Assembly (NCBI GenBank): GCA_034716235.1 | Contig: JAYEHH010000032.1 | Coordinates: forward strand, 370 to 64,369 | DNA length: 64,000 bases | Source: Patescibacteria group bacterium | Lineage (GTDB): Bacteria; Patescibacteriota; Minisyncoccia; CAIUEV01; JAHKAQ01 | Direction: 5' to 3' | In this document: one piece after another, positions 21,633 through 53,057 of the stretch | How positions within the stretch are numbered: position 1 is the first letter of the stretch | How the letters are laid out: each line of letters begins with the position of its first letter | Translations under genes and position numbers: made by a program | The notes under the pieces: generated by a model | The model's input: only the letters and a program-made list of their open reading frames with translations | What the model was told of the DNA's origin: nothing | Databases searched by the model: none

Positions 21633-21664
<32 letters not shown>

Positions 21665-21679: not shown

Positions 21680-21726
<47 letters not shown>

Positions 21727-22896: not shown

Positions 22897-23229
22897 TGTA
22901 CTGAATGGTGAATCCGAACTAGATAATTATCTGGTTCGGATTGTATGTGGGTTATTAATATTTTATTATGCTTTCTAACAAAGCGTTGCTAGGGTGCATA
23001 AAACGGTGACAATCGTCCAAAGTAGAAAGCCTATTAAAGGCATCTCTGCTAGGCCAATTGCCGTGCTCATCATCTTCTTTGTTCTTCCTTTCATATTGAT
23101 CCTCCTCCTCTAATTTCAATTTAAAAAACATAATTTACCCACACTTACCTTTTTTATTTTTTCTCCTTTCCTAAATCCATTTAGATTTCTTGGATTTAGA
23201 TTTTAAAGTTCAATTCACCATTCAGTACA
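22897..23229 (-). other. ~330-nt stem-bounded insertion (IVS or expansion segment) replacing 23S helix 63
   Basis: It lies between the conserved cttcgggataaggc and ggccacagctaaagactccgggcgactgtttatcaaaaac blocks. A perfect 17-bp inverted repeat (tgtactgaatggtgaat 22897-22913 / attcaccattcagtaca 23213-23229), extended by gccgac/gtcggc, closes ~300 nt of AT-rich non-rRNA sequence. Confidence 0.75.
22975..23094 (-). CDS. 39-codon ORF for a small hydrophobic peptide inside the 23S insertion (MKGRTKKMMSTAIGLAEMPLIGFLLWTIVTVLCTLATLC)
   Basis: It is on the same strand as the rRNA. gaggaggagg lies 6 nt upstream of the ATG (complement of 23101-23110). The basic N-terminus is followed by a ~22-residue hydrophobic helix, and the stop is TAG at 22975-22977. 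It is too short for the ORF track. Coding status is unproven. Confidence 0.35.
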   Translation of the reverse strand: MKGRTKKMMSTAIGLAEMPLIGFLLWTIVTVLCTLATLC

Positions 23230-24453: not shown

Positions 24454-24495
<42 letters not shown>

Positions 24496-25309
24496 AAAGT
24501 GTATTTAGTCTTACCGGGTTAGTACCGGCAAATTCACCTGGAATTTCTCTAGTTCCAGGCTACTCAAGATAAAATAACTCAGAGTGATTAATTGTTTTCG
24601 CCTACAGGACTTTTACCTTCTAAGGTAAGCCTTTCCAGGCATTTTTGGCTAACAACTAATGCTTTTTACTCTGCCAATACTAAAAGTTGTAAAAGCACAA
24701 TAAAATTATACTTTTACAATTTCAGTTCGGACGCTATTGAACTTATTACCCTCAGTAAAAACTGAGTTTGGACTTTTCCCCGTTCGCTCGCCGCTACTTA
24801 GGGAATAACTATTGTTGTTTTTTCCTTCGGCTACTAAGATGTTTCAATTCGCCGAGTATGCTTTTTACTCCTATGTATTCAGAGTAAAATTCTATTCAAA
24901 AATGAATAGAGGGTTTCCCCATTCGGAAATTCCCGGATCAAAGCTTGCTTGACAGCTCCCCGAGACTTTTCGCAGCCTGCTACGCCCTTCATCGCCACTT
25001 TGTACCAAGGCATCCACCATATGCTCTTATAACCACAATTTATTAGTGTTTTTAGCTAATTCACAAAGATTATTTGTAAATTAATTGCAATCACTTAAAT
25101 ACCATTTTGCCTAATAATTGTTTTTAACCACAATCTCCAAACAACTATTATTAAAATAAATTGTTAAAGTCCATTATGTGGCCTAAAAGGTAGTTTTTAA
25201 AAATAAAAACCGCTTTTCAAGCCGCTAATTCTTTAAAATAAATTAGACCCAAAAACTAGCCAAGGAACAGCTCTTAATAAATTCTCAATAAAATAATACT
25301 ATAAAAATT

Positions 25310-33451: not shown

Positions 33452-35128
33452 TTATTTTTTGCGCTTAAAACCAATGACCAATTTATCTTTCAAGAATATC
33501 TCTAAAAATTCTAAAATATTTCTAGTAACAAAAACTGCCGTAAACATACTCAAAGTAATTCCAATTCCTAAAGTAATTGCAAAGCCCTTAACCATTCCGG
33601 TACCTAAGCTTGTTAAAACTACACAAGTAATTAGGGTTGATATGTTTCCATCTCTAATGGATGGCCACGCCCTCTTAAAGCCGTTGCTAATCGCTAGCTT
33701 AACGGAACGTCCTTCTTTTAATTCTTCCTTAATGCGTCCAAAAATAAGGATGTTAGCATCCACCGCCATTCCTACCGAAAGAATAAAACCGGCAATGCCC
33801 GAAAGAGTTAAGGTAATTCCTAAAATTTTAAAAACGGCCACGATAGCAACGGCATAAAAACTTAAGGAAATAACCGCTACCAATCCGCAGATTAAATAAA
33901 AAGTTAGCATAAAACCAGAAACTAAGCTTATTCCAAGTAAGCCAGCCGTTAAACTTTTCTTCAAGGAAGATGCTCCTAAGGAAGCTCCTACTTTTTCTTG
34001 GCTAATCAATTCAATTGGAACCGGTAAAGCTCCAGCATTTAATCTTTTAGCCAATTCCTTGGCCTCGGTGATATCTCCAGAACCAGTGATAACCGCTCTT
34101 CCGTCGGCAATAACGGTTTGGACAACTGGAACGGTAATAGGTGCTCCGTCTAGAAAAATAGCTAATCGTTTACCAACATTTCTTTCGGTAATCTCCCTAA
34201 ACATCTTCTTTCCTTCATCATCAAACTGAAGAGAAACTTGAGGCTCTTGAGTATTTTGATTAAAAATAACCGCTGCTTGCTTTAAATTTTTTCCAGTAAG
34301 CGGAGTTAATTTAAATGGCTGAGTAGCAACTTCTTTTTTTGTTTCGTCAACAGTTTTAAATAAAATGTGGCTTATTTTAACTTCTTGCTGGCCATCAATT
34401 TCTCTCTCGTCAGTTTTCTTAAGAAGATGATAGCCAAATTGAGTTTGAACTAGATTTGGCCAAACAGAATCTTTAGTAAAGTCTTTGTTGAAAGCCACTT
34501 CTTCAAATTCGGGTACCATAGCTTCTTTTCCGAAGAATCCTAAATCTCCACCTTGGTCTTTGTTGGCAACATCGGCAGAATTTTCCTGAGCAAGTTTAGC
34601 AAAATCTTCACCGTCTAAAGCTTTCCCCAAAATAGCTTCTGCCTGAGTTTTGCTTTGCTGATTGGTTTCTTTAGCTATTTCTTGTTCTTCTGGAGTTAAT
34701 TGTAGAGCTTCTTCATCATTTTCTTCCCGAAAATCAAGCACAGGGGTTTCGCCTATCATGGCGATAGCTGCCTCAACATTAGTAACCCCTGCCAAATCTA
34801 CAATGATACGATATTCCTCACCAGATTTATTGGTTAAAATTTGAGGTTCAGAAACTCCATAAGCGTTAACCCTTCTTTCAATAACGTCTCGAATACCACT
34901 CAAGCTTTCTGTCAAACTATCCGAAGGAATACTTGACATATCCGCCCGATAAACCAGGTGAGCTCCTCCTTGCAAGTCAAGTCCCAACTTTATTTTTAAT
35001 TCCCTTAAGGTTTGACCGACAGGCTTTCCCAACAAATTAAAATCTGGCATTTTGGGTGAAGCCACGGCTCCAGCAACTAAAGTTAATAGAATTATAGCTA
35101 GAATGTTAAGATAAATTTTTTTATTCAT
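33452..35128 (-). CDS. secD: protein translocase subunit SecD with parvulin-like domain embedded in the periplasmic P1 region
   Basis: 558 aa. SecD motifs are present: LGLDLQGGAHLVY, LNAGALPVPIELISQEKVGASLG, and the TM core with VDANILIFGRIKEE. Residues ~145-260 resemble a PpiC/parvulin rotamase (DFAKLAQENSADV..GGDLGFFGKEAMVPEFEEVAF...VQTQFGYHLLK). Confidence 0.9.
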   Translation of the reverse strand: MNKKIYLNILAIILLTLVAGAVASPKMPDFNLLGKPVGQTLRELKIKLGLDLQGGAHLVYRADMSSIPSDSLTESLSGIRDVIERRVNAYGVSEPQILTNKSGEEYRIIVDLAGVTNVEAAIAMIGETPVLDFREENDEEALQLTPEEQEIAKETNQQSKTQAEAILGKALDGEDFAKLAQENSADVANKDQGGDLGFFGKEAMVPEFEEVAFNKDFTKDSVWPNLVQTQFGYHLLKKTDEREIDGQQEVKISHILFKTVDETKKEVATQPFKLTPLTGKNLKQAAVIFNQNTQEPQVSLQFDDEGKKMFREITERNVGKRLAIFLDGAPITVPVVQTVIADGRAVITGSGDITEAKELAKRLNAGALPVPIELISQEKVGASLGASSLKKSLTAGLLGISLVSGFMLTFYLICGLVAVISLSFYAVAIVAVFKILGITLTLSGIAGFILSVGMAVDANILIFGRIKEELKEGRSVKLAISNGFKRAWPSIRDGNISTLITCVVLTSLGTGMVKGFAITLGIGITLSMFTAVFVTRNILEFLEIFLKDKLVIGFKRKK

Positions 35129-38768: not shown

Positions 38769-41582
38769 ATGAAAAAAATTATTATTCGCGGAGCACGAGA
38801 ACATAATCTCAAGAATGTCAACCTCAAATTACCTCGGGGCAAGTTTATTGTTTTTACAGGAGTTTCTGGTTCAGGCAAATCAACTCTAGCCTTTGATACT
38901 ATTTTTGCTGAAGGTCAAAGACGCTATCTTAAAAGCCTTTCTAGTTATGCCCGTCAATTTCTAAGCCAGGTAGGAAAGCCAGACATGGATTTAATAGAGG
39001 GTCTTTCTCCAACTATATCTATAAATCAAAAGACTGTTGGGCGAAATCCTCGTTCTACCGTAGGAACCGTCACGGAAATATACGATTATTTAAGGCTTCT
39101 CTTTGCTAAAATAGGCACCCCCTTTTGCCCTCGTTGTGGAACAGAAATTAAAAAAAATTCGTTAGAAGAAATAATTAAAGAGATCTCAAAAGAATTTAGA
39201 GAGCGTGCTCAAATTCAAATCTATGCCCCAGTAAATTGTAAAACAAAAGAAGAATGTCAAACCGTTTTGGGTAATCTTTATGAACAAGGTTTCGCTAAAG
39301 TCATTATCAATGGAGAATTAGTAAAGCTCTCTACTTATCGTTTTCTGCAATTCAAAAATCCTGCTCCTTACAAAATGAAAGTTTTAATAGATGAATTAAA
39401 ACTTAATTCTAAAAATTCGGGGAAATTGGCCGAAAGTCTTGAGCGCGCCTTAAGAACAGGGAAAGAAAAAGTTGTAATCACCCAAGGTAAAAAAGTTAAA
39501 AGCTTTGGCCGAAATATGAAGTGTCCCAATTGTGGTTACCGTTTGAAAAAAATTGAGCTAAATTCTTTTTCTTTCAATAGCCCTAACGGAGCTTGTCCCG
39601 TTTGTAACGGTCTTGGAAAACAAATGCAGGTATCTCTTAAGCTAATAATGCCTGACCTTTCTAAAACCATAGGTCAAGGGGGAATTTTTCCTTATAGTTA
39701 TCGTCGTAATAAATATTTCATTCAATTTGTTAATTCAGCGGCTAGAGTTCTAGACATTTCTTTGAATACTCCCTTAGGAAAAATTCCCCGATCCCAACTT
39801 AATAAATTACTTTTGGGGAAAGGAAAACCAATAGTTATAAAAATTAAAGAGGCTCATCACCCTACTAAGGCTCAAGCCGTTACTTTCCCTGGAATAATTA
39901 AGTATCTAGAAAATTATTATCACAACACTGAATCTAAACAAATTAAAAAAGAGATTGAGAAATATATGATTAAGAGAACTTGTCCTGCTTGCCATGGAGC
40001 TCGTCTTAAGCCTGACAGTCTTCTTATAAAAATTAAAGGAAAAAATATAAGCGAAATTGCTAATCGCTCTATTAAAGATTTAATTAAGTTTTTCCGCACG
40101 CTCAAGTTTACTCAGGGGCAAGAGCTGGTTGCTAAACGAATCAAACAAGAAATAGTTAGCCGTCTGACTTTTTTAAATAATGTAGGATTACCGTATTTAA
40201 CTTTAGATCGTTCTTCGGCTACTTTGGCAGGAGGTGAATTTCAAAGAATTCGTTTAGCCAGTCAAGTTGGAACAGAGTTGACAGAAGTAATCTATATTTT
40301 AGACGAACCTTCCATCGGCCTACACGCTAGAGATAACAAAAAATTATTGGCTATTCTAAAAAAATTAAGAGATGCCGGCAATACAGTCATTGTTATTGAG
40401 CATGACAAGGAAACCATGCTTAACGCTGATTGGCTGACCGACATTGGACCTGAAGCTGGAGAAAACGGTGGTAGAATTATAGAAAATGGTCCGTTGAAAA
40501 AAGTTTTACGGAGTAAAAAATCGCTAACGGTTCAATATTTAAAGGGAGAGATTAAAGTTGAGATTCCTCGCAAAAGAAGAACTCCTTCTAAAAAGAAGCT
40601 GATTATTTCGGGAGCTCAAGAGCATAATTTAAAAAATATACAAGTAGAAATACCTTTGGAGGTTATGACTTGTATTACGGGAGTTTCCGGATCGGGGAAG
40701 TCAACTCTAGTTAATAATATTATTCACCGTAAACTGGCTAATTATTTTTATCATTCCATTGCCCAACCGGGAAAACATAGGAAAATAGAAGGATTGCAAT
40801 TTATTGATAAAGTTGTAGGGATAGACCAGTCACCTATTGGACGCACTCCCCGCTCTAATCCGGCAACTTATACCAAGGTGCTTGCTCCCATCAGACAACT
40901 ATTTGCCTCCACTCCGGCTGCTCAAATTAAAGGATTTACTCCCGGTCAGTTTAGCTTCAATATGACAGGTGGTCGTTGTGATAATTGCCAAGGGGCAGGA
41001 TTTCTAAAAGTAGAAATGCAATTTTTGCCAGATGTTTATGTACCTTGTGATGTTTGTAAGGGGAAACGTTTTAAAAAAGAAATTTTAAAGGTAAACTATC
41101 AGGGAAAGAATATAGCTGATGTTTTAGCAATGACGGTCAATGAGGCTGCTCGATTTTTTTATCAGACACCTCAAGTTTACAACATATTAGCGGTAATTCA
41201 AGAAGTGGGTCTGGGTTACATTAAACTAGGACAATCGGCCACCACTCTTTCTGGGGGAGAAGCTCAGCGAATTAAGTTAGCTTCTGAACTGGCCAAGAAA
41301 CCAACCAATAAAACTTTCTACATTCTGGATGAGCCGACAACCGGCCTTCATTTTGAAGATATTAAAAAATTGCTAACCGTTATCCAAAAATTGGTTGATC
41401 AAAAAAATACCGTTTTAATGATTGAGCATAATTTAGATGTTATAAAATCAGCCGATTGGATTATTGATCTTGGGCCAGAAGGTGGCGAACAAGGTGGTAA
41501 AATTGTTGCTCAGGGAGCACCAGAAAAAATTATTAAAAACGCTAAAAGCTATACTGGAAAATATCTTAAGGGATATCTTTAA
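38769..41582 (+). CDS. uvrA: excinuclease ABC subunit A
   Basis: 937 aa. It has two ABC ATPase modules (GVSGSGKST twice, LSGGE.QRI.LA twice) and zinc-finger Cys clusters. Confidence 0.95.
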
Positions 41583-41625
41583 AGTTTTTGATTATTATGG
41601 TACAGTAGAAATGAGTTCATAAAGT

Positions 41626-41648
41626 GACTAGCTACTAAGTAGCTAGTC
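41626..41648 (+). terminator. palindrome gactagctact-a-agtagctagtc downstream of uvrA (possible terminator hairpin; no T-run)
   Basis: An 11-nt perfect inverted repeat lies 44 nt after the uvrA stop and abuts the MITE-like repeat. Confidence 0.25.
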
Positions 41649-41842
41649 ATTCCCGTGCCTGTCTGCCGTGAGGTAGAAAGGCAGGAATCCCGGTACGTCT
41701 AGACAATTCCTTGCCAAGTTAGTTTCTTCTAAATTTGCTTGGGACCCCCGCTGGAGTTTATCCCGTACTTGATACGGGGCGGGAATGACAGGGGAAAAAG
41801 CTGGTTGGAGTTTTACCCAGTAGATGTGGGACGGGAATGACC
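41646..41842 (-). repeat. GC-rich MITE-like repeat, copy 2 (inverted relative to copy 1, with ~50-nt extra segment)
   Basis: The reverse complement of 41646-41789 aligns with 1080-1225 (…cccgccccgtatcaagtacgggataaactccagcggg…gtctagacgtaccgggattcc…ggcacgggaatgac). An additional outer terminus, ggtcattcccgtc, lies at 41842. Confidence 0.65.
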
Positions 41843-41894
41843 ATAAACTAGTTACAATCAATGCCTTTTAAAAACAAAAAATAATTAATTAACC

Positions 41895-42266
41895 ATGCTA
41901 GGAGTTGTTTCTTATTATTTCGCAAGTCTTTCAACAAAAGTAAGCAGTTGGACAATTAAACTTTTATTTTTTTGGTTAATTGAAGGACCTAAAAAATATT
42001 GGAAAAAAGTTTTTACTCTCTCAGTCGCCTTTGAAAGTGTTTGGGCTACTTTAATAACTTTCCGTTATTTTTTCAAACCTCTCTACCAAGATTATTCTAT
42101 CATTGGCCGAATTATTGGTCCCCTTTTTAGATTGGGACGCATACTCATAGGCATTGGCATGCATTTTGTTCTGTTAGCTAGTTATACTGTTGTCTTTTTA
42201 GGATTGTGTTTTGTCTGTTGGGGGGCACCGTTTTTCTTTATTATAAATTTATTCATTTGGCATTAA
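41895..42266 (+). CDS. hypothetical small membrane protein
   Basis: 123 aa with 3-4 hydrophobic segments. No family recognised. Confidence 0.45.
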   Translation: MLGVVSYYFASLSTKVSSWTIKLLFFWLIEGPKKYWKKVFTLSVAFESVWATLITFRYFFKPLYQDYSIIGRIIGPLFRLGRILIGIGMHFVLLASYTVVFLGLCFVCWGAPFFFIINLFIWH

Positions 42267-42305
42267 AAATTAATCCGTTTTTTAAATAGCTAGTTTCACC
42301 ATTTT

Positions 42306-45047
42306 ATGCAATCAACAAAACCTAAAATAAAACCAATAAGTTGTTCTCAGTGCAAAGGAGCTGGTTGGATTGGAGAAATGAACAATACTTGCCCTGCTTG
42401 CAAGGGAATTGGCTATGCAGAAGAAGTGCGTGGAGTCCAACTTTATTGGGGAAGAAAGATGCGAGGCATGCCCCCTTCCCTTAGAAAATCTCTGGCTAAT
42501 TTTTCTTGGATTGTTAAAACAGTGACTTCTAGTCTTTGTGCCCTATTTATTTTCATTGGATTGATAAATTTGATTGATAATCTCAAAGGACATCCCAATT
42601 TGACCTTTGACTTTAATTTAATTTTTGACATTTTCTTCGCCGGCTATGCCACGGCCCCTCTCTGGCTAGGGATTGTATTATTAATAATTCTTTATTTCCA
42701 CAAAGCTATTTATCAAAAACCAGAAATTATCTCTTTTGATAATCCATACTATTCTTTCGTTTTAACCGAAAATTTAAATGAGATAGCCAAACCTAGTACC
42801 TCCACAATAGATATCTCCAAGTCAGCAAGTACAGCCACAATAAAGGTAATCAATACTGCTTTAGATTCAGCTCTTAAACACAAACAAAATCCTCACTTGA
42901 TTCATCTACTTTTTTCCTTGATGCAGAATAAAGAGATAGTAGAGTTATTTTTTAAACTAGAGATACCACCGAAAGCTTTTTTAGAAGATGTCGCTAAAGT
43001 GTTGGGAAAAATAGAACCACTAAATGCCTCTGCAGCTTTAAATGGTAACTTTAAAAAATACTTGCTAAAAACTTTCTGGAGCGCCCTGACCGCTGAAAGC
43101 TCTTTTATAAAACCGGCTCACCTCTTACTGGCCATTATGGAATCTAGAGATTTAAAGCAAGTACTCAACAAATATGCTGTTAAGGCAGATGACTTCCAAA
43201 ATATTTTACTTTGGATGAAATATAAGAACATAAGATCGACCAACTTCTTGAGCAGGGATTCTTTTCAAAAGCCTCCTCACCATATTATGAATAGAAGTTG
43301 GAGTGCGACAGTCACTAAGACATTAGATCAATTCAGTACCGACATAACCGATTATGCCCGAGTAGGAATGTTGCTTCCACTTGTTAATAGAAAGCGAGAA
43401 ATAAGAATGATAACTCGGGTTCTTCAGCGAAGTGCTAAAAACAATGCCTTAATTATTGGCGAGGAAGGAAGCGGACGAGATGCTATTGTTAGAGGAATAG
43501 CTCGTAAAATAATCAAAAATGAAGTTCCTTCTTCTTTATTTGATAAAAGAATTGTTAAATTAAATTTGGGAGCTTTAGGAACTGGCTCTGATGGTGAACT
43601 CTTGAAAAGAAGGATTGAGGTCATAATGCAGGAAGTGGTCCGAACTCAAAATGTAATTATTTATATTCCCAATATTCACGAATTGGCCAAGATTCAAAAT
43701 TCTGCCTCCTTAGATATAATTAGTTTTCTAACTCCTCTTTTTTCTAAAAGAGTTATCCAAATTATTGGATCTACAACCCCTCAAGCCTATCGAGAAATTG
43801 TTGAGCCTCGGGGAGGATTCTCTCAGACTTTTGATATTATAAAAGTAAAAGAACTATCACCGGAACATTCCTTGAAAGTTCTTTCCATTCAAGTTCCTCT
43901 ACTAGAAAGAGAAAACAATGTTTTAATTTCTTATCGGGCTTGCCAAGAAGCTATTCAACAATCCAACCAATTCATTGTTAATCGCCTACTACCTCAAAAA
44001 GCTCTGAATGTTTTAACGGAAGCTATTGTGCGAGCCAAAGATGTGAAGGGAAAGAATTTAGTGACCGAAGCAGAAATTCAAGAAGTATTTTCTGAAAAGA
44101 CGGGCATCCCCATTACAAAAATTGGACAAGGAGAAGCTGAAGAATTATTGAAACTAGAAACAAAAATTAGAGCCAAGGTGGTTGGACAAGAGCTGGCCGT
44201 AAAAAATGTAGCGGACGCAATCCGAAGAATGAGGGTGCGCATTGGCGAAAAAGAAAGACCGATAGCTGTTTTTATGTTTCTGGGCCCCACAGGAGTTGGC
44301 AAGACTGAATTAGCTAAAACTTTAGCGGAAATATACTTTAAATCTCGTAAGAATATGATTCGTATTGATATGAGTGAATTATCCAGCCCTTATGATGTAG
44401 AACGAATGATTGGCGGTCCTAATAGCAATAGGGCTGGATTATTAACTGGCAAGGTGCGTCGCAACCCTTTCTCTCTGATTTTGTTAGATGAATTTGAGAA
44501 AGCCGATCGTGCTATCTGGGATATCTTCCTGCAAATTTTTGATGACGGCCGGGTAACAGACGGGAAAGGAAGGGTAGTAAATTTCACCAACACAATTATT
44601 ATTGCTACTTCCAATGTGGGCTCAAGAATAATTTTGGAAAAACTTCAAGGAGGCCAAAGTAATAAAATAATTAAAGCATTAGTTAAAACAGAACTCTTGA
44701 AAATATTCCGCCCTGAATTTTTGAACCGCTTTGATGACATTATAACTTTCAATGCTCTTTCTCATGAAAATATTAAACAAATAGCAAAATTAGAGCTCAA
44801 GTCTCTTAATAAGAGATTAGAGGAAGAACAAGGAATTACCATAAAATTAACAGACGAAGCTCTGGATTATTTAGCCAAGATAGGTTATAGTCCTGAATTC
44901 GGAGCTCGCTTTCTTAAAAGAACCATCCGAGAAAAGATTGAAGATGTTCTGGTGATTGGTATTTTGAAGAAACAGCATAACCGAGGAGATATTGTTACTA
45001 TAACGAGAGAAATGCTAGAGAAACCAGGAAGAGTAGAAGGTTCATAA
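42306..45047 (+). CDS. atypical membrane-anchored Clp/Hsp100-type AAA+ ATPase (DnaJ-type zinc finger + 2 TM + Clp-N-like + degenerate D1 + intact D2)
   Basis: 913 aa. The N-terminus has CSQCKGAGW....CPACKGIGY (two CxxCxGxG). Hydrophobic segments lie at ~aa 64-90 and 105-132. AHLLLAIMESRD is Clp-N-like. D1 Walker A reads GEEGSGRD (not GxxGxGKT) and D1 Walker B reads IIYIPNIHEL (not DE). D2 is intact (LGPTGVGKTELAKTLA, ILLDEFEKA, sensor-2 GARFLKR). No IGF/LGF ClpP loop or ClpB M-domain was seen. Confidence 0.75.
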   Translation: MQSTKPKIKPISCSQCKGAGWIGEMNNTCPACKGIGYAEEVRGVQLYWGRKMRGMPPSLRKSLANFSWIVKTVTSSLCALFIFIGLINLIDNLKGHPNLTFDFNLIFDIFFAGYATAPLWLGIVLLIILYFHKAIYQKPEIISFDNPYYSFVLTENLNEIAKPSTSTIDISKSASTATIKVINTALDSALKHKQNPHLIHLLFSLMQNKEIVELFFKLEIPPKAFLEDVAKVLGKIEPLNASAALNGNFKKYLLKTFWSALTAESSFIKPAHLLLAIMESRDLKQVLNKYAVKADDFQNILLWMKYKNIRSTNFLSRDSFQKPPHHIMNRSWSATVTKTLDQFSTDITDYARVGMLLPLVNRKREIRMITRVLQRSAKNNALIIGEEGSGRDAIVRGIARKIIKNEVPSSLFDKRIVKLNLGALGTGSDGELLKRRIEVIMQEVVRTQNVIIYIPNIHELAKIQNSASLDIISFLTPLFSKRVIQIIGSTTPQAYREIVEPRGGFSQTFDIIKVKELSPEHSLKVLSIQVPLLERENNVLISYRACQEAIQQSNQFIVNRLLPQKALNVLTEAIVRAKDVKGKNLVTEAEIQEVFSEKTGIPITKIGQGEAEELLKLETKIRAKVVGQELAVKNVADAIRRMRVRIGEKERPIAVFMFLGPTGVGKTELAKTLAEIYFKSRKNMIRIDMSELSSPYDVERMIGGPNSNRAGLLTGKVRRNPFSLILLDEFEKADRAIWDIFLQIFDDGRVTDGKGRVVNFTNTIIIATSNVGSRIILEKLQGGQSNKIIKALVKTELLKIFRPEFLNRFDDIITFNALSHENIKQIAKLELKSLNKRLEEEQGITIKLTDEALDYLAKIGYSPEFGARFLKRTIREKIEDVLVIGILKKQHNRGDIVTITREMLEKPGRVEGS

Positions 45048-45157
45048 AGTTCATAAAGTTTGTAAAGTTCGTAAAGTTTTCAGGGTTAAGAATAGCGAGA
45101 TAAAGACTTGATAACTTTATAAACTTTACAGACTTTTCACTTTCTAACTTTATAACC
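45040..45157. repeat. palindromic array of 9-nt words (gttcataaa x2, gtttgtaaa, gttcgtaaa ... inverted aactttata/aactttaca words)
   Basis: The 9-nt period was read directly from the sequence. The first unit supplies the last codons and the TAA stop of the Clp-like gene, and TAA then recurs in frame every third codon. The right arm is the inverted complement and ends 4 nt before the tsaD GTG. Confidence 0.7.
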
Positions 45158-45161
45158 TCTC

Positions 45162-46238
45162 GTGAATATCTTATCCATCGAAACATCTTGTGATGAAACT
45201 GCTTTCGCTATTGGAGCCGTGCAAAACGGTCATTTTAAGCTTTTAGCAAACACCGTCTCATCTCAAGTCAAAGTTCATCAAAAATTCGGTGGTGTGGTTC
45301 CTAATTTATCTGCCAGAGAACACTTAAAAAATTTCAAGCCACTGCTAGATAAAACATTGACTCAAGCTGGTATTCCCCTCAAAGAAATTGATTGTTTTAG
45401 TGTTGCTCCCGGTCCGGGACTTATTCCGGCTCTTTTAGTAGGAACATCTATCGCTAAAACTTTAGCCTTTTATCATCAGAAACCCTTAGTTCCCATTCAT
45501 CATTTAGAAGGACACACTTACGCTACTTGGCTAAAGAAAAATGGAGAGTTGAGAGATGACATTGCTTTTCCCGCTTTGGTTTTAATAGTTTCCGGAGGAC
45601 ATACCCAACTAATGCTGATGCAAGACCATTTGCATTACGAAATACTCGGCAGAACTTTGGACGATGCAGTTGGAGAAGCTTTTGACAAAGTGGCTAGAAT
45701 TTTAGAATTAGGTTACCCCGGAGGTCCTTTGATTGAAAAAATAGCTCAAAAAGGTAATCCAGAAAAGTTTCAACTTCCTAGACCGATGATCAATTCTGAT
45801 AATTTAGATTTTAGTTTCTCGGGATTAAAAACTGCCGTCCTTTATGTCGTGAAAGAATATCTTGAGAAAAAGGAAATGGTCCCGACCGCTGATATGGCCG
45901 CTTCTTTTGAGCAAGCCGTTGTTGATACCTTAATAGCCAAAACGCAAAAAGCGGTTAATACTTACAACCCTCAGTCATTAATTTTGGCAGGAGGAGTAGC
46001 TGCTAATACAAAAATAAGGGAAGCTTTTATTGAAATTGCTCAGAAACGAAACAAAGCAAAAGAATACTCAAATTACTATCCCCTACAAGCTTACGTCCCA
46101 GAATTAAAATTCTGCGGTGACAACGCTGCCATGCAATTACCGGCAGTATTTTTTAGATTAGAAAAGTATGGGAAGAAGAAGTATCGGGAGGGGTGGAGAG
46201 ATGTGGAGGCTGAGGCTAATTGGGGGCTCAGTTCATAA
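45162..46238 (+). CDS. tsaD: tRNA N6-adenosine threonylcarbamoyltransferase
   Basis: 358 aa. It has the N-terminal ILSIETSCDETA, HHLEGH and GGVAAN motifs of TsaD/Kae1. The start codon is GTG. Confidence 0.92.
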   Translation: MNILSIETSCDETAFAIGAVQNGHFKLLANTVSSQVKVHQKFGGVVPNLSAREHLKNFKPLLDKTLTQAGIPLKEIDCFSVAPGPGLIPALLVGTSIAKTLAFYHQKPLVPIHHLEGHTYATWLKKNGELRDDIAFPALVLIVSGGHTQLMLMQDHLHYEILGRTLDDAVGEAFDKVARILELGYPGGPLIEKIAQKGNPEKFQLPRPMINSDNLDFSFSGLKTAVLYVVKEYLEKKEMVPTADMAASFEQAVVDTLIAKTQKAVNTYNPQSLILAGGVAANTKIREAFIEIAQKRNKAKEYSNYYPLQAYVPELKFCGDNAAMQLPAVFFRLEKYGKKKYREGWRDVEAEANWGLSS

Positions 46239-46525: not shown

Positions 46526-48343
46526 ATGCCAAATTATTTCGTCAATCAAAGAAATATTAGTGCGTTACTTCAAAACATTAAGGACGAAGATATTGTAATC
46601 CCAGAAATTCAGAGACCTTTTGTTTGGGAGAGTAAAAAAGTTCGTAATCTTATGGACTCATTGTATCAGGAATTTCCAATAGGTTATATTATTACATGGA
46701 AAAATCCAAATATAAGACTAAAAAATGGAAGAATGAGCGAGGGAAAACAAGTTATAATAGATGGACAACAAAGAATTACCGCTTTAATGGCTGCGATCTT
46801 GGGACGAGAAATTATAGACAAAGAGTATCAAAAAAAGAGGATTCGGATTTCCTTTAATCCATTGAAAGAAAAGTTTGAAACATTAACTCCTGTTATTGAA
46901 AAAAATAGTGAATGGATAAGCGATATTTCAGAATTTTTTAAAACTAGAAATAATATTTTTAATTTTACTGCTAATTTTTGTAAAAAAAATAATTTTACCG
47001 AAAAACAAAAAATCAAGACTCAGCAAAGTCTAACAAAATTACTAAACATGGAGGATAAGTTTATTGGAATTATTGAGCTTGATGCAAATTTAGATATTGA
47101 TGATGTAACGGAAATATTTGTTAGAATTAATGATGCTGGGACTCCCCTTTCACAAGCAGATTTTGCAATGAGTAAAATTGCCTCATACGAACCAACATCA
47201 GACCATTTGTTTGGAGTGAATTTAAGAAAGTCTATTGATTATTTTGCTCATCTATCTCAAACACCACATTTTCTTGAAGATATTGGAAGAAACGATAAAG
47301 AGTTTAGCCGAACAGAATATTTGCTAAAAATGAAATGGGCCGGGAAGGAATTGGATAATATATATAATCCAAACTATAAGGATATTTTAAGAGTAAGTTT
47401 CATTAAGGAATTTAATAGAGGGAAAATTAGCGATCTTGTGAAGCTTTTATCTGGACAAAATTTTAAAACAAGAAATTATGATCAAAAAATACAAGAGAAA
47501 TCATTCTTGGCTTTAAAAAATGGAGTCCTTGACTTTATAAATGAAAATCATTTTAAGAAATTCCTTATTATTTTACAATCAGCTGGAATTATTGATTCAA
47601 AACTTATTAATTCACAGAGCGTTCTAAATTTTGCCTATATTGTCTATTTAAAACTTAGAAAAGATGGAATGGCAAATAATTTAATTGGGAAATATACAAA
47701 AAAATGGCTTGTTCTTTCAATTTTGACTGAAAGATATTCAGCCTCACCAGAATCTACGATGGATAAGGATATTAAAGATATTAATAAATATGGAATTAAA
47801 AAAGTTATTGCAAAGATTGAAGAGGCGGACATGTCATCAACTTATTGGAATATTGGACTTGTACAAAATTTAAACAGGGCGATAATTTCAAGCCCATTTT
47901 TAAGCCTCTTTTTTATAGCACAGATATGCTCTAAGGATAAAGCTTTATTCTCCGAATCGGTTTTAATCGATCAACTCGTTAGCATAAAAGGAGACGTCCA
48001 TCATATTTTCCCCAAAAATTATCTTCAAAAAGCAGGGTTTGGAATAAGTAAATATAATCAAATTGCAAATTTTGTTTATTTACAACAAGAAGTAAATATA
48101 ACAATAGGAGATAAACCACCAGGACAATATTTTAGCCGAGCATTGAATCAATGTGATAATAAAACTTTGGATAGTGGAAGTATTGGAGAAATTACAGACA
48201 AGAAAAAATTGATAAAAAATTTAGAAATAAATTCTATCCCAACTGATATTTTTGAAATGGATATTACTAATTATGATGAATTTTTAGAAAAAAGACGGAA
48301 ATTAATGGCAAAGAAAATTGAAAAGTTTTATAAAAGTTTATAG
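46526..48343 (+). CDS. GmrSD-type modification-dependent (type IV) restriction enzyme, DUF262 + DUF1524
   Basis: 605 aa. The N-terminal DUF262 has IPEIQRPFVW, EFPIGYII and IIDGQQRITAL. The C-terminal His-Me/HNH-like DUF1524 has GDVHHIFPKNYL...NFVYLQQEVNITIGDK. Confidence 0.8.
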   Translation: MPNYFVNQRNISALLQNIKDEDIVIPEIQRPFVWESKKVRNLMDSLYQEFPIGYIITWKNPNIRLKNGRMSEGKQVIIDGQQRITALMAAILGREIIDKEYQKKRIRISFNPLKEKFETLTPVIEKNSEWISDISEFFKTRNNIFNFTANFCKKNNFTEKQKIKTQQSLTKLLNMEDKFIGIIELDANLDIDDVTEIFVRINDAGTPLSQADFAMSKIASYEPTSDHLFGVNLRKSIDYFAHLSQTPHFLEDIGRNDKEFSRTEYLLKMKWAGKELDNIYNPNYKDILRVSFIKEFNRGKISDLVKLLSGQNFKTRNYDQKIQEKSFLALKNGVLDFINENHFKKFLIILQSAGIIDSKLINSQSVLNFAYIVYLKLRKDGMANNLIGKYTKKWLVLSILTERYSASPESTMDKDIKDINKYGIKKVIAKIEEADMSSTYWNIGLVQNLNRAIISSPFLSLFFIAQICSKDKALFSESVLIDQLVSIKGDVHHIFPKNYLQKAGFGISKYNQIANFVYLQQEVNITIGDKPPGQYFSRALNQCDNKTLDSGSIGEITDKKKLIKNLEINSIPTDIFEMDITNYDEFLEKRRKLMAKKIEKFYKSL

Positions 48344-48375
48344 TAATAATTTTCTAATCAGAGAGCAGAAAGCTC

Positions 48376-48777
48376 TTACTCCTTATCAGGCAATCTATCA
48401 TCTTTTTTTCTTTGATAATAAGTATTCTTATTTAAACATCTGTTTATAATATTTTCCATGTGCCAATAAGTGTAATTGCCATATCTAAAATAAATCTGTT
48501 TTGTTTTGTAAAAATAATCCTCGTATCCTGACTGGTCAATGTAATTAGCAAGCTCTAAGTATAATTTGTTATCAACTTTTTCTTGGACAATATATTCATG
48601 GGGCCATGTTTTAGCATAAGTTTTTGCAGGCGTCCAATTAGAATTTTTAATAAATAATTTTAAATTATTGGGGAGTAGTACTCTATCAAACATCGCCTTT
48701 ATTTTTTTACTATGAAGAAATATTAAAACCTTTTTGATTGTAGCTATAGTATTGTTGATTACTTTAGTTTCATCCAT
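48376..48777 (-). CDS. hypothetical protein (WTPAKTY..WPHEYIV motif)
   Basis: 133-aa ORF convergent with the GmrSD gene. It is rich in aromatic residues (YFYKTKQIYFRYGNYTYWHM). No family could be named. Confidence 0.45.
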   Translation of the reverse strand: MDETKVINNTIATIKKVLIFLHSKKIKAMFDRVLLPNNLKLFIKNSNWTPAKTYAKTWPHEYIVQEKVDNKLYLELANYIDQSGYEDYFYKTKQIYFRYGNYTYWHMENIINRCLNKNTYYQRKKDDRLPDKE

Positions 48778-48927
48778 GCTGAATCTAAAGTGGATTCCAT
48801 AAGTTGCATATTCTTTTAATCAAAAATACATTATTTATTTCAATAAGTATAGTAAGTTATAATTTAAAATAGCTGAACAGAATTCTTAATTTATAATCTA
48901 GAATTTGTAATCTAAAATCTCTCAAGA

Positions 48928-48965
48928 CTTGATTAAATGGGTAGAAAGTGGCTTAATGGGGAGGA
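48928..48965 (+). repeat. island repeat, left half-unit B (38 nt), possible promoter TTGATT-17nt-CTTAAT
   Basis: cttgattaaatgggtagaaagtggcttaatggggagg is identical to the first 37-38 nt of unit C (55963-56000). It lies 131 nt upstream of the McrB start. Confidence 0.7.
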
Positions 48966-49095
48966 GAATTGCATGGTTAATTGGTTATCAATGAAAATGC
49001 TATAAAGTTTTTATTAAGATTATAATTAAGAGAATAATTCAGGTAGGGTTTTTTGCAAAAATTAATGTGCTTTTTAATTATTTTATATAAATTCA

Positions 49096-52014
49096 ATGAG
49101 AGTTAATATCAAGGAAATCAGGAGAATAATTAAATCTGATGTTATTAAGCCTAGAATTGAAGAATATTTACAGAAAAGAAAAAGTGGAGACGAGCAGCAA
49201 TGGAACGAGGAATATAAATGGGATCCAAAAATATTGCCTGCAACACATAAGGAATTTATCAAGGAAAGAGACATTCTTAAAAAAATTGAAATTCTTCAAA
49301 AAAATAATCCAAACGAAGGATCCTTTGTGAGTTATATGGACTTGGACGATCTCAATAAATTTGCTAAGGAAAAAACAAAGCAAGCCACAAAGTTGATGGA
49401 AAACTTATTGAATGGAAAAAAGAATATTGCTAAACGCATTGATTATTTTAGGGATGAGACGAAAAAAGTGGATGAAAAAATTAAATTAGGAACACCCTTA
49501 TTTGGTTACATTATGGCGGTATTCAATTCCAGTAAATATCCAACTTATAAAAATTCAACCTTTATGGCTCTCAAAAAGCTCATTGGAAAAAGACAAGAAT
49601 GGAGTTCTATGAGTGTTGGCGAGAAATATCAAACATTTACTGACCTGTGCCATGAAATGGGCAAATTGCTGAAGCCAGAACTTGAAACTGTAAATATCAG
49701 AGGTATTGAGGTCAAGCCAGGAAGGACTGCTCTGGATGGTCAAGACTTTTTCTATATTCTTGAAGATCGTTATAATAGAGAGAGATATTTCCCCGAACTT
49801 GTTAAATTTCTTGAACAAGCCAAGGCAAGCAATCTTACAACAAAGCAATACCGAAAGGATTATATGAATTGTAAAGTGAGGATAAGTTTTGGAAAAGTAA
49901 GCTCTGCACAAACACCCTGGATTAGTTTTTTATCCGGTGACAATAAATTACAGAAGGGAATTTATCCAGTCTTTCTTTTTTATAAAAGTATAAATAAATT
50001 ATTTCTAGCATATGGTATAAGTGAAATAAGTGAACCCGAACAAATTTGGAACATTGTTGGAAAAGAAACAATTGAAGATTATTTTATTGAAAATTTCAAC
50101 TCGGAGCCAGAGAGATATGGCAGTTCTTATGTTTATAAAGTATACGATGTGAAAAACATTGATAATTTAAATCAAGAACAAATGGAAAATGACTTGAAAA
50201 ACATAATTAATGAATATAAAAAACAACTTGAAGAAACTCCAAAAATTCAATACTGGACAATTTCTCCGGGGGAAGATGCAAAGCACTGGGAGGAGTTCTA
50301 TCAAAAAGGGATCATTGGAGTCGGCTGGGATAAAACAAAAGATCTCTTACAATATAAAAATAAAAAAGAAATTCAAAAGGTTGCGAAAAACTTATTTGGA
50401 TTAAAAACTAATGCCAGCAATACTGCCCAAGCTTGTTTGGATTTTTCTAGAACAATGAGAATTGGGGATATTTTAATTGTCAAAAAGGGAATTCATGAAT
50501 TGGTCGGCTATGGAAAGGTAACTTCAGATTATATTTATGATGCAAGGAGGAAGACATATAAACACATACGAAATGTGATGTGGATTAAAAAGGGAAATTG
50601 GAAGATAGATAAAGAGATTATTCATCCTGCATTAAAAACTTTAACTAACATAACTCCGTATGAAGGTTATGCCCAAGAATTATTGGGCATAATGGACGAA
50701 AGTAATATTGATGGAAAAAATTACTGGTGGATTAATGCAAATCCAAAAATTTGGAATTTAACAGAGGCGGAAGTCGGTTCCAAACAAATATATACAAGCC
50801 ATAATGAGGCCAAGAATCCCAGAAGAATTTATAGTTATTTTAAAGAGGTTAAGCCGGGCGACATTATGTTTGGATATATAACAAGTCCTGACAAACAAAT
50901 TACTTCAATATGCAAAATAACCAAAGGGTTATATGAGAACAAAGAGGGGGAAGTGATTGAATTTGAAAAAACTGAGACTTTACAAAATCCAATTTTGTGG
51001 AATGAATTGAAAAATGAAGAAAGTTTGAAAAATTGCGAACCAATTAAGAACAATCAAGGAAGTTTGTTTAAAATAAGCAAAGAAGAATATGAAACCATTA
51101 GATATTTGATTGATGAGAAAAATATTTTCACGAAAGAAAAAATTGAAAAATATATAAAAAAGGATGCTCTAGACAAATTATTTATTTCAGAAAATGAATT
51201 TGATAATATAGCCCAAAATATTGAAAGAAACAAAAATATCATTCTGCAAGGCCCTCCCGGAGTTGGCAAAACTTTTCTTGCAAAAAGGTTGGCTTATTAT
51301 TTGATTGGATACAAAGACGTAAACAAGGTACAATCTATCCAATTTCATCAATCATATTCATATGAAGATTTCATGCAAGGTTACAGGCCCAATGAAAAAG
51401 GAAAATTTGATCTTGTTAATGGAATATTTTTCAGATTTTGTCAGAAAGCTAAAAATGATCCAAACAATAAGTATTTCTTCTTGATAGATGAAATAAATAG
51501 AGGAAATCTGAGCAAAATTTTTGGTGAATTAATGATGCTTATTGAAAAAGATAAACGGGGTAAAGATTTTGCTATACCTTTAACATATTCCCAAGATGAC
51601 AGAGAAACATTTTATGTGCCAGAAAATGTTCATTTGATTGGGACTATGAACACAGCTGATAAATCACTTGCGATGGTAGACTATGCTTTGCGAAGAAGAT
51701 TTAATTTTATTTTTCTGAAACCAAAATTTAATAACAGCTTTAGTTCATTCCTAGAAAATATGGGAGTTAAAAAGATTATTATTAAAGCGATAGTTGAAAA
51801 AATAAGCAAACTAAATGAGATGATAATTAATGATGATAATAATCTTGGAAAAGGATATCAAATTGGTCATAGTTTTTTCTGTCCTCAGAGAAAAAGTAAA
51901 TATGACGAAGAATGGTTTAAGAATATTGTCAAATACGAAATTGAACCATTGCTCGAGGAGTATTGGTTTGATAGTGAGAAAAAATTTAATGAAGCGAAGA
52001 ATTTATTAAACTGA
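49096..52014 (+). CDS. mcrB: McrB-family AAA+ GTPase with extended N-terminal sensor region (DUF3578/MrcB_N-like + PUA-like + EVE-like)
   Basis: 972 aa. The AAA+ core spans aa ~700-900 (ILQGPPGVGKTF, FFLIDEINRGNLSKIFGELMMLIE, LIGTMNTADKSLAMVDYALRRRF). aa ~255-310 (KVRISFGKVSSAQTPWISFLSGDNKLQKGIYPVFLFY) resembles DUF3578. aa ~384-505 (YWTISPGE..W..F...GIIGVGW...MRIGDILIVKKG..LVGYGKV) and aa ~541-675 (YWWINANPKIW...VKPGDIMFGYITSP...QGSLFKISKEEY) look like EVE/PUA-type barrels. Confidence 0.8.
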   Translation: MRVNIKEIRRIIKSDVIKPRIEEYLQKRKSGDEQQWNEEYKWDPKILPATHKEFIKERDILKKIEILQKNNPNEGSFVSYMDLDDLNKFAKEKTKQATKLMENLLNGKKNIAKRIDYFRDETKKVDEKIKLGTPLFGYIMAVFNSSKYPTYKNSTFMALKKLIGKRQEWSSMSVGEKYQTFTDLCHEMGKLLKPELETVNIRGIEVKPGRTALDGQDFFYILEDRYNRERYFPELVKFLEQAKASNLTTKQYRKDYMNCKVRISFGKVSSAQTPWISFLSGDNKLQKGIYPVFLFYKSINKLFLAYGISEISEPEQIWNIVGKETIEDYFIENFNSEPERYGSSYVYKVYDVKNIDNLNQEQMENDLKNIINEYKKQLEETPKIQYWTISPGEDAKHWEEFYQKGIIGVGWDKTKDLLQYKNKKEIQKVAKNLFGLKTNASNTAQACLDFSRTMRIGDILIVKKGIHELVGYGKVTSDYIYDARRKTYKHIRNVMWIKKGNWKIDKEIIHPALKTLTNITPYEGYAQELLGIMDESNIDGKNYWWINANPKIWNLTEAEVGSKQIYTSHNEAKNPRRIYSYFKEVKPGDIMFGYITSPDKQITSICKITKGLYENKEGEVIEFEKTETLQNPILWNELKNEESLKNCEPIKNNQGSLFKISKEEYETIRYLIDEKNIFTKEKIEKYIKKDALDKLFISENEFDNIAQNIERNKNIILQGPPGVGKTFLAKRLAYYLIGYKDVNKVQSIQFHQSYSYEDFMQGYRPNEKGKFDLVNGIFFRFCQKAKNDPNNKYFFLIDEINRGNLSKIFGELMMLIEKDKRGKDFAIPLTYSQDDRETFYVPENVHLIGTMNTADKSLAMVDYALRRRFNFIFLKPKFNNSFSSFLENMGVKKIIIKAIVEKISKLNEMIINDDNNLGKGYQIGHSFFCPQRKSKYDEEWFKNIVKYEIEPLLEEYWFDSEKKFNEAKNLLN

Positions 52015-52019
52015 TTTTT

Positions 52020-53057
52020 ATGGAGATACCTATAATAAATATATATTACCTACTTTGTTATGCTTGGGATAAACTTGAAGAAAAAGATGTTGTTAACGTA
52101 AAAGAAGAAGATCACACTAAGTTACTTGATCTTTTTGCAAAGATATTAATTAACGGAATGAATCATCTAATCAGGAAAGGATTGGACAGAAATTACATTG
52201 ATATCAAAGAAGATTCAAAGAGAATTAAGGGAAAGATTAATTTCAATGAAACACTGAAAAGGAACTTGTTGGTACGATGTGAAATTAGTTGCGAATTCGA
52301 CGATTTTAGTTACAACATTCTTCACAACAGAATTATTAAAACAGTGATTGGAGGATTAGTTAGAAATGATGAGGTGGATCAGGAGCTGAGGGACGAATTG
52401 AATAAAATCTATCGATTATTGAAAGAGATTGATGAGATAAGGCTTTCCTCAAAAATATTTAATGCTGTAAAATTAAACAGAAATAATTACTTTTATGATT
52501 TTCTGATCAAGGTATGTAGGCTGATATATGAAAATTATTTAATCACGGAAGAAACGGGCAAGGGGAAATTTAGAGATTTTATAAGAGACGAAGTAAAAAT
52601 GAGAATGCTCTTCGAAGATTTTGTTAGGAATTTTTATAGAAAAGAACAAAACGAATTTTCTGTAACAAGGGAATTGATTGCATGGAATGTTAAGGCTGAG
52701 AATGATGAAGATATGAGTTATATGCCGAGAATGGAAACCGATATATCGCTAAAATCAAAAAGTAAAAAAATAATAGTTGATACAAAATATTATAAAGAGG
52801 CCATTAAGGGTCAATATAAGAATAAAGAAAAGTTAATATCCAATAATTTATATCAAATGTTTGCCTACATAAATAATATAGAAAACAAAGGAGGTCTAAA
52901 TAAAAAATGTACTGGAATATTACTTTACCCAACAGTTAAAAAAGATTTGGATTTAAAATATAAAATACCAAATCATAACTTACAAATTAAAACAATAAAT
53001 CTAAATCAAGAATGGAAAAAAATTCATAAAGACTTATTAAGTGTAATTATGACTTGA
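52020..53057 (+). CDS. mcrC: McrC-family nuclease subunit
   Basis: 345 aa, starting 5 nt after mcrB. The N-terminal YLLCYAWDKLEE and the C-terminal PD-(D/E)xK-like METDISL...IIVDTKYYK are typical of McrC. Confidence 0.8.
   Translation: MEIPIINIYYLLCYAWDKLEEKDVVNVKEEDHTKLLDLFAKILINGMNHLIRKGLDRNYIDIKEDSKRIKGKINFNETLKRNLLVRCEISCEFDDFSYNILHNRIIKTVIGGLVRNDEVDQELRDELNKIYRLLKEIDEIRLSSKIFNAVKLNRNNYFYDFLIKVCRLIYENYLITEETGKGKFRDFIRDEVKMRMLFEDFVRNFYRKEQNEFSVTRELIAWNVKAENDEDMSYMPRMETDISLKSKSKKIIVDTKYYKEAIKGQYKNKEKLISNNLYQMFAYINNIENKGGLNKKCTGILLYPTVKKDLDLKYKIPNHNLQIKTINLNQEWKKIHKDLLSVIMT

Follow-up and report, generated by a model that had tools for sequence, protein, structure and literature searches.

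We analysed a stretch of 64,000 nucleotides (nt) from a Patescibacteria group bacterium (contig JAYEHH010000032.1; hereafter the window), in which two adjacent genes on the forward strand lie between uvrA and tsaD, with secA, secDF and hpf on the opposite strand. The larger gene (42306-45047) begins with ATG and encodes 913 amino acids (aa) plus a stop codon; its product is an Hsp100/Clp-family ATPase that is predicted to be anchored in the membrane. The smaller one (41895-42266), separated from it by 39 nt, encodes a hydrophobic protein of 123 aa, here called the partner. An earlier note, made from the nucleotide sequence alone, had described the ATPase as a membrane-tethered unfoldase or disaggregase of unusual design, and had mentioned a small membrane gene directly upstream, which proved to be a real open reading frame (ORF) with a hydrophobic product. 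The wider gene order around the pair recurs in the related loci L001 and L002 and differs in L004-L007, so that the conserved unit consists of the two genes only. Promoter and terminator scans across 41500-45300 were uninformative, as the sites found were no commoner than in shuffled sequences.

The ATPase is laid out as a zinc module, a transmembrane (TM) hairpin, a Clp_N-type domain and two AAA+ modules (ATPases associated with various cellular activities), D1 and D2. Pfam matches were obtained for AAA_2 (PF07724, aa 651-812, E = 2.4e-48), ClpB_D2-small (PF10431, aa 818-899, 2e-23) and AAA_lid_9 (PF17871, aa 519-581, 1.6e-6). All NCBIfam equivalog models of Clp proteins matched the ATPase well under their cut-offs, and the scores for ClpB (TIGR03346, 520.8 bits against an equivalog cut-off of 1232.1), ClpA (TIGR02639, 452.8 against 993.15) and ClpV (432 against 885) were less than half of them. 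Because these matches are universal and yet so far below the cut-offs, the sequence places the protein in the class I (two-ring) Hsp100/Clp superfamily, outside every curated subtype. The best Foldseek matches of its AlphaFold2 (AF2) model were ClpC and ClpB, with E values down to 1e-54. In HMMER alignments with solved structures, Thermus thermophilus ClpB aligned in two pieces (150-393 and 509-837), whereas ClpA aligned in a single stretch (ATPase aa 185-888 to ClpA 13-722). ClpB residues 394-508, the M-domain, found no counterpart in the ATPase; the D1 alignment with ClpB runs to aa 578 and that of D2 starts at aa 572, so that the two modules are directly joined, and the AF2 model contains no coiled-coil insertion. 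The lack of a ClpB middle domain, proposed in the earlier note, was thus borne out. There was also no Pfam match in the ATPase to UVR (PF02151), the mark of the ClpC-type M-domain, or to Peptidase_M41, the protease domain of FtsH.

The N-terminus carries two CxxCxGxG motifs, CSQCKGAG (aa 13-20, nt 42342-42365) and CPACKGIG (aa 29-36, nt 42390-42413), within a putative zinc module of the anti-TRAP/DnaJ cysteine-rich type (aa 10-47, nt 42333-42446), which AF2 folds into beta-hairpins (aa 8-47) and which is followed by a conserved LYWG motif. Cys13, Cys16, Cys29 and Cys32 were invariant in 40/40 N-termini of the family described below. A profile built from these 40 matched anti-TRAP (PDB 2bx9, E = 2.6e-9) and the cysteine-rich domain of Escherichia coli DnaJ (1exk, E = 1e-8), as well as DNAJA2; PF00684 was matched by 39 of the 40 and PF15777 by 31. 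Alone, the ATPase of the window scored 28.1 bits with DnaJ_CXXCXGXG (aa 13-42), under the Pfam gathering cut-off of 32.7. The ClpX-type zinc-finger family was not among the 25 Pfam families listed for these N-termini. The earlier assignment of a DnaJ-type zinc finger agrees with these results, which support a module with a single zinc centre, most like that of anti-TRAP, with zinc binding as a prediction.

Kyte-Doolittle hydropathy revealed two hydrophobic segments after the zinc module, TM helix 1 (TM1, aa ~67-90, nt 42504-42575) and TM helix 2 (TM2, aa ~106-133, nt 42621-42704, FDIFFAGYATAPLWLGIVLL; the hydrophobic segment reaches aa ~135), which coincide with AF2 helices 57-94 and 103-136, modelled with a predicted local distance difference test (pLDDT) score of ~85-90. 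The flank preceding TM1 is positively charged, with five Lys or Arg and no Asp or Glu, while the 15-residue loop between the helices has one Lys or Arg and two Asp or Glu. This distribution obeys the positive-inside rule and fits a predicted N-in/C-in topology, in which the cytoplasm would contain the zinc module as well as the AAA+ body. The two hydrophobic helices and the membrane tether of the earlier note are therefore upheld at the level of prediction. Among close homologs, TM2 was the best-conserved stretch of the N-terminal region (identity 0.75, compared with 0.38 for TM1 and 0.50 for the N-domain), which argues for a role of TM2 beyond plain hydrophobic anchoring. The helices precede a Clp_N-type N-domain (aa 176-307, nt 42831-43226): Pfam Clp_N matched aa 260-300 above its cut-off (25.5 bits versus 20.7), the alignments of ClpA and ClpC with the ATPase begin inside their N-domains, and AF2 modelled eight helices corresponding to a double Clp_N repeat, in line with the Clp-N-like repeats noticed before. 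A low-confidence linker without regular secondary structure (aa 308-337) leads to D1.

D1 (aa 338-600, nt 43317-44105) appears to be catalytically dead. In comparison with T. thermophilus ClpB, the Walker A motif GEPGVGKTA is replaced by GEEGSGRDA (nt 43458-43484) and the Walker B motif ILFIDELH by IIYIPNIH (IIYIPNIHEL at nt 43656-43685); at the site of the arginine fingers ERRFQ has become SQTFD (GGFSQTFD, nt 43812-43835), and in the pore loop AGAKYRGEF has become GTGSDGELL, with GSDG in the place of KYRG (GALGTGSDGELL, nt 43569-43604). Judged from these motifs, D1 has lost the Walker A Lys and Thr, the Walker B Asp-Glu, both arginine fingers and the pore-loop Tyr. The loss of both Walker motifs had been claimed in the earlier note, with nucleotide coordinates that were right within 3 nt, and it was upheld by HMMER alignments with solved ClpB, ClpC and ClpA and by MAFFT alignments with controls; an ordinary ClpA, ClpB or ClpC whose D1 had simply been misaligned was thereby rejected. 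Because the dead D1 is as well conserved among close homologs as D2 (identity 0.72 versus 0.73), purifying selection would seem to hold it as a structural element.

D2 and its small domain (aa 608-905, nt 44127-45020; Pfam, HMMER and MAFFT) had been called canonical, and for the ATPase motifs this is correct: Walker A (GPTGVGKTE, nt 44283-44309) and Walker B (LILLDEFEKA, nt 44475-44504) are intact, and sensor 1 (nt 44604-44615), the Arg finger (RPEFLNRFD, nt 44709-44735) and sensor 2 (FGARFLKR, nt 44898-44921) are retained, the last three also in every homolog inspected. The pore loop, however, departs from the canonical form. In both HMMER and MAFFT alignments GAPPGYVGYEEGG is replaced by GGPNS----NRAG, so that the tyrosine of GYVG is deleted and the shortened loop (IGGPNSNRAGLLT, nt 44409-44447) contains no aromatic residue. 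The ClpP-docking loop was likewise not found at its expected position in D2 (nt 44610-44666), where the MAFFT alignment reads SRIILEKLQGG, SRIILEKLQGGQ and SNVGSRIILEKLQGGQSNK in the ATPase, TAIGFSK in a control ClpA (P0096, IGF) and SGVGFAT in a control ClpC (P0059, VGF); in the HMMER alignment a gap faces RFAGFGGSSDG of Staphylococcus aureus ClpC. This agrees with the absence of an IGF/LGF loop reported in the earlier note. With no IGF/VGF loop and no M-domain, the motifs would exclude ClpP docking and M-domain-mediated coupling to DnaK, respectively. A motif scan of long ORFs, confined to the 64-kb window, detected no ClpP serine site, no Lon site and no FtsH HExxH. The claim that the protein is not a standard ClpA, ClpB or ClpC is thus well founded, given the equivalog scores, the dead D1 and the missing M-domain and ClpP loop. 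The label of unfoldase or disaggregase is not secure as worded, because it presumes canonical threading and the pore-loop tyrosines are gone from both rings.

The partner is built of two long helices (AF2, residues 2-50 and 69-121; pLDDT 88.7), with a conserved W27, a PLYQDYS-IGRxxGPxFRxxR motif and a hydrophobic C-terminus of 40 residues, and had no match in Pfam, NCBIfam or PADLOC. A search with a profile of the partner returned 315 clusters. None of them has a Pfam domain or any annotation other than hypothetical, and every one with a named taxon came from Patescibacteria. Starting from the ATPase side, we found a homologous ORF of ~107-143 aa directly upstream, as in the window, in 9/9 loci (L001, in which the ORF had not been called, L002/L003, L004, which has a different wider neighbourhood, L005, L006, L007, L076 and L077). 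Starting from the partner side, the profile identified 67 loci in GTDB species genomes, spanning Jorgensen-, Wolfe-, Brenner-, Colwell- and Moranbacteria, Paceibacterota, Minisyncoccia, a Microgenomatus and metagenome-assembled genomes labelled Saccharibacteria; they were overwhelmingly patescibacterial, some being labelled only 'bacterium' and one Nanoarchaeota. In all 66 of these loci with enough downstream sequence, a Clp-like gene followed on the same strand. Its start codon lay between -20 and +30 nt from the stop codon of the partner in 60/66, with a median gap of 2.5 nt and frequent 4-nt ATGA overlaps, a signature of translational coupling as far as gene spacing can tell. Moreover, the partner domain was fused to the ATPase, at residues ~2-105, in 15 distinct sequences (13 clusters; E values from 1e-12 to 5e-20). 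These belong to a sister subgroup that includes P0234, P0237, P0318, P0341, P0347, P0348, P0352, P0354 and P0356; P0352, encoded at 5001-7583 of locus L075, has no separate partner gene upstream. Such a Rosetta-stone fusion is strong evidence, at the level of sequence, that partner and ATPase act as one machine. Co-occurrence with the upstream ORF, which the earlier note had proposed to check, was therefore more than a curiosity, and the small protein is to be regarded as an obligate partner of the ATPase.

The ATPase itself is no isolated case. A word-indexed search retrieved nine full-length relatives, 57-91% identical, whose sources are Moranbacteria and other Patescibacteria. Each of the nine has a zinc module and two TM helices as well as GxEGSGRD and IPNIHEL. 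The search also gave remoter TM-bearing relatives that lack the zinc module. An exhaustive search with residues 1-600 gave 910 representatives at E<1e-30. For the family analysis we compiled 203 complete members, comprising the top 150 representatives, the earlier matches and 66 proteins translated from genome loci; since members were selected by the absence of the D1 pore-loop motif [YF]RG, its count of 0/203 follows from the selection. At least one N-terminal TM segment was predicted in 196/203, and 65/203 carried the paired CxxC module. The D1 lesions vary in extent: the Walker B 'DE' was present in 12/203 (mainly PD, PN, DN or EN in the others) and the 'RR' fingers in 10/203, and the Walker A lysine was kept in 164/203. 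Walker A and B of D2 were intact in 203/203. A canonical G[YFW][VIL]G motif occurred in the D2 loop of a single member, and any aromatic residue in the core of this loop in 21/203; many members share a conserved replacement loop, GSPDGxxxGxLT. No ClpP loop was seen among the family members inspected by MAFFT. All family members and partner proteins with a named taxon were Patescibacteria, so that this is a large family, with 203 or more complete members, as yet recorded from that group alone. The design is unusual, as had been noted, in that it departs from a standard Clp; it is not a one-off, as the family extends across Patescibacteria. Neither Pfam nor NCBIfam holds a model for the ATPase-partner family, and no published description of it was found in the literature searched.

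In the sister subgroup with the fused partner D1 is intact (GKT, IDEIH), yet the aromatic pore loops are gone from both rings. This suggests that, in the history of these sequences, the loss of the pore loops preceded the death of D1 or was independent of it. A minority of zinc-finger-type members (P0261 from L076, P0233, P0266, P0272, P0304 and P0306) have kept GY or GF in their D2 loop, and upstream of P0261 the partner gene persists. Since these few members also have the partner, an ancestral ATPase probably threaded, and this activity has since been relaxed in most lineages, that of the window among them. For the placement of D2 among the Clp proteins, a neighbour-joining tree with 200 bootstraps did not separate the family, which was monophyletic with the fused subgroup in 40% of replicates, and mean distances were used instead; by these the D2 of the family lies nearer to ClpB (0.94-1.03) than to ClpC (1.06-1.17), and nearer to ClpC than to ClpA (1.22-1.31).

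A putative orthologous pair is annotated in the Saccharibacterium Southlakia epibionticum (Wang et al., Cell 2023, Table S1, PMC10633639). SEML1_0701 is a hypothetical gene of 384 nt assigned a helical-hairpin fold, and its sequence overlaps with that of SEML1_0700 (2583 nt), which is annotated as 'AAA family ATPase' and has AAA (276-381), lid (415-471), AAA_2 (544-706) and D2-small (713-792) domains and no Clp_N (PMC10633639). The two genes are divergent from murT and cobQ, an arrangement that matches locus L007. In transposon sequencing (Tn-seq) over three passages, both were scored as non-essential, non-essential and growth-defective (NE, NE, GD), i.e. non-essential with a late growth defect, and normalised reads fell from 4124 to 2517 and 1638 for SEML1_0700 and from 258 to 157 and 51 for SEML1_0701 (PMC10633639). 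The same genome also encodes a canonical ClpC (SEML1_0512, with two Clp_N and UVR) and ClpP (SEML1_0493), both non-essential (PMC10633639).

Several other features of the window were recorded. A defence island on the forward strand (46526-53057) comprises genes for a GmrSD-family endonuclease, a 972-aa McrB-like protein (MrcB_N, EVE and AAA_5 domains combined) and McrC. Comparison with the syntenic L001 and L002 shows the island to be inserted between tsaD and glmS-type genes. The GmrSD and McrB-like genes are separated by an ORF of 133 aa on the reverse strand (48376-48777), which has no Pfam match. The spacer between uvrA and the partner gene contains, at 41620-41860, a GC-rich element that folds on the forward strand (z=-4.2) and has no Rfam match. 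It is a copy of a dispersed intergenic repeat around ACGGGAATGAC (eight matches versus 0.37 expected, often as inverted pairs), with further copies at ~1064/1215, 27405 and 38572/38587. We considered the element as a leader or riboswitch and rejected this, because it belongs to a dispersed repeat and the corresponding spacer of L002 (68 nt) lacks it; it looks like an element of the REP (repetitive extragenic palindromic) or MITE (miniature inverted-repeat transposable element) kind, unrelated to the pair. The window further contains a complete 23S rRNA gene on the reverse strand (21341-25040), interrupted by a group I intron (22377-22717), and no 16S rRNA, 5S rRNA or tRNA genes in its 64 kb. 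Unlinked, intron-bearing rRNA genes are typical of bacteria of the candidate phyla radiation (CPR). In SecD (33452-35128, reverse strand) aa 151-241 form an inserted peptidyl-prolyl isomerase (rotamase) domain of the PPIC type, a fusion also found in L002.

To explain the pair, we favour, with a probability of about one half, a two-component membrane AAA+ machine that works without ClpP or DnaK, its D1 serving as structural ring and its D2 being the sole motor, and that remodels or extracts membrane proteins. By analogy with every solved Hsp100, the large subunit would be hexameric and sit at the cytoplasmic side of the membrane. The TM hairpin would anchor this ring and, because the anchor is N-terminal to the Clp_N domain, the substrate-entry face formed by Clp_N and D1 would be turned toward the membrane, with D2 projecting into the cytoplasm. 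D1, being catalytically lost and yet conserved like D2, would most likely serve as a nucleotide-independent assembly ring, leaving D2, which keeps every ATPase motif, as the only motor. The partner, produced in 1:1 coupling, most likely packs on the conserved TM2 and forms with it the membrane part of the machine, and the zinc module and Clp_N, located between membrane and ring, could offer sites for binding clients or the partner. The machine would then use ATP to remodel proteins embedded in or associated with the membrane, or to extract them, acting in quality control or in assembly. As both rings are devoid of aromatic pore-loop paddles, the grip on a polypeptide would be weak or non-canonical; either other residues grip the chain and remodelling is limited, or there is no threading and the ring drives a membrane assembly in a Torsin-like manner.

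Some observations weigh against extraction by such a machine. In ClpB and Hsp104 the tyrosine of D2 grips the translocating chain and is needed for threading; as neither ring of our ATPase has an aromatic pore-loop residue, processive extraction appears doubtful. D1 is probably unable to bind nucleotide, which may impair hexamer formation of the kind known from ClpB. The AF2 model of the ATPase is of a monomer (mean pLDDT 84.8), which limits any reading of complexes and contacts. The orthology of SEML1_0700/0701, which we infer from annotation, Pfam coordinates and synteny with L007, comes with a phenotype that is mild, and no CIRCE heat-shock operator (controlling inverted repeat of chaperone expression) was found near the pair within three mismatches.

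A motor that does not thread at all is a possible though doubtful explanation, in which D2 would use ATP to switch the conformation or the oligomeric state of the assembly of TM hairpins and partner. It could thus gate or build a channel-like ring of 18-24 helices, or reshape the membrane, comparable in this to Torsin and its transmembrane cofactors. The near family-wide lack of aromatic pore loops, which includes the subgroup with intact D1, would be accounted for; the conserved GSPDGxxxGxLT suggests that the loop has a different, selected role, and such a device would be expected to show both the conservation of TM2 at the level of the ATPase cores and a strict 1:1 coupling to a membrane hairpin protein, up to fusion with it. 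On the other hand, Clp_N, a chaperone-type zinc module and the full Hsp100 ring architecture, all client-handling features, have been kept, and the few members with both a GY/GF loop and a partner (P0261, L076) speak for threading as the probable ancestral activity. In a bolder form, which we consider unlikely, the pair would be a CPR-specific ATP-driven membrane device and no unfoldase, whose ring of D2 motors, devoid of loops that grip a polypeptide, drives an assembly of ~18-24 helices (six hairpins from the ATPase and six from the partner) to move or rearrange something other than an unfolded chain of protein, for example host-derived lipids or envelope components, which CPR bacteria are unable to make themselves. 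Quite unlikely in our view is a pseudo-enzyme that serves as a scaffold or adaptor, tethering clients, chaperones or proteases (FtsH, ClpCP) to the membrane with ATP binding by D2 as a switch. A wholly dead D1, degenerate pore loops in both rings and the mild fitness effect in the inferred saccharibacterial ortholog would suit a scaffold; nevertheless, D2 retains Walker A and B throughout the 203 members, and sensor 1, the Arg finger and sensor 2 in the homologs inspected, which argues that selection acts on hydrolysis, beyond mere binding.

That the ATPase might after all be an ordinary ClpC, ClpA or ClpB, working either as unfoldase for a ClpP protease or as a disaggregase dependent on DnaK, could be read from its best fold matches in the PDB, ClpC and ClpB. 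We find this very improbable in view of the D1 lesions and the missing M-domain and ClpP loop, all confirmed by HMMER against solved ClpB, ClpC and ClpA, of the IGF/VGF seen in the controls at the same site, and of NCBIfam scores below half of the cut-offs; a related CPR genome, besides, has separate canonical ClpC and ClpP. The proximity of the GmrSD and McrBC genes, ~1.5 kb from the ATPase gene, and PADLOC matches to DolB and PDC-M37B raise the question whether the ATPase belongs to the neighbouring anti-phage island, in the manner of ClpB-like defence ATPases. This hardly deserves credence: the PADLOC matches span the generic D2 module only, the syntenic L001 and L002 lack the island and have glmS-type genes after tsaD, and the pair is found in more than 70 genomes amid housekeeping genes of various kinds.

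The two-component membrane machine that we favour shares parts with several known systems and coincides with none of them. With ClpB and Hsp104 the ATPase has in common the two-ring Hsp100 fold, Clp_N, the absence of a ClpP loop and identical D2 ATPase motifs, and ClpB is nearest to its D2 by both hidden Markov model score (TIGR03346, 521 bits) and mean distance; it differs in lacking the M-domain and thus Hsp70 coupling, in its dead D1 and the loss of both pore-loop tyrosines, and in its predicted membrane anchor, N-terminal zinc module and obligate small membrane partner. ClpA likewise consists of N-domain, D1 and D2 in that order and lacks a middle domain, but the ATPase is predicted to be membrane-bound and has no IGL/IGF loop, no active D1 and no pore-loop Tyr. 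From ClpC and ClpE it is set apart by the lack of the short UVR-type M-domain and of a VGF/AGF loop. ClpE and ClpX are soluble, dock ClpP and bear an N-terminal zinc module; the ATPase resembles them in placing a Cys4 zinc module before the AAA+ part, although its module is of the CxxCxGxG DnaJ-CR (cysteine-rich)/anti-TRAP type. Two such repeats and one zinc centre (here predicted) are also found in anti-TRAP (RtpA) and the cysteine-rich domain of DnaJ, whereas in our case a 35-residue module precedes a TM hairpin and an Hsp100 body, with no J-domain and no link to TRAP.

Among membrane-associated ATPases, FtsH and Msp1/ATAD1 likewise have an N-terminal TM anchor that sets the entry face of the ring at the cytoplasmic side of the membrane, as would the ATPase, a geometry suited to pulling clients from the bilayer. 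They are, however, single-ring members of the classical AAA clade with aromatic pore loops, and FtsH has a protease domain; our ATPase has the two rings of an Hsp100, lacks both a protease domain and aromatic pore loops, and shares only the TM hairpin with FtsH. Torsin, with LAP1/LULL1, is also related to the D2 of Hsp100, lacks aromatic pore loops and has transmembrane partners. It is a single-ring, luminal, eukaryotic protein whose arginine finger is supplied by the cofactor LAP1/LULL1, whereas D2 of the ATPase keeps its own. In PTEX (Plasmodium translocon of exported proteins), HSP101 on the EXP2 pore provides an example of an Hsp100 in a membrane-embedded complex without ClpP; the rings of HSP101 are active, it possesses pore-loop tyrosines as well as an M-domain, and it pushes its clients into a pore on the exit side, while the anchor of the ATPase would be on the entry side.

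Taken on their sequences, the ATPase and its partner constitute a two-component membrane family of the Hsp100 kind, with a previously unnamed small partner and no curated model. Hsp100/Clp ATPases are textbook soluble threading machines, and five departures from that textbook picture have been kept across a bacterial radiation: the protein is, by prediction, bolted to the membrane, its D1 is a pseudo-ATPase, its pore-loop tyrosines are lost in most lineages, it would make no use of ClpP or DnaK, and it is genetically locked to a small membrane protein, in some members by fusion. The family thereby challenges the assumption that aromatic paddles are required for Hsp100 function. The pair also represents a two-gene module conserved across the CPR, and the genetically tractable Saccharibacterium S. 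epibionticum appears to carry it (SEML1_0700 and SEML1_0701).

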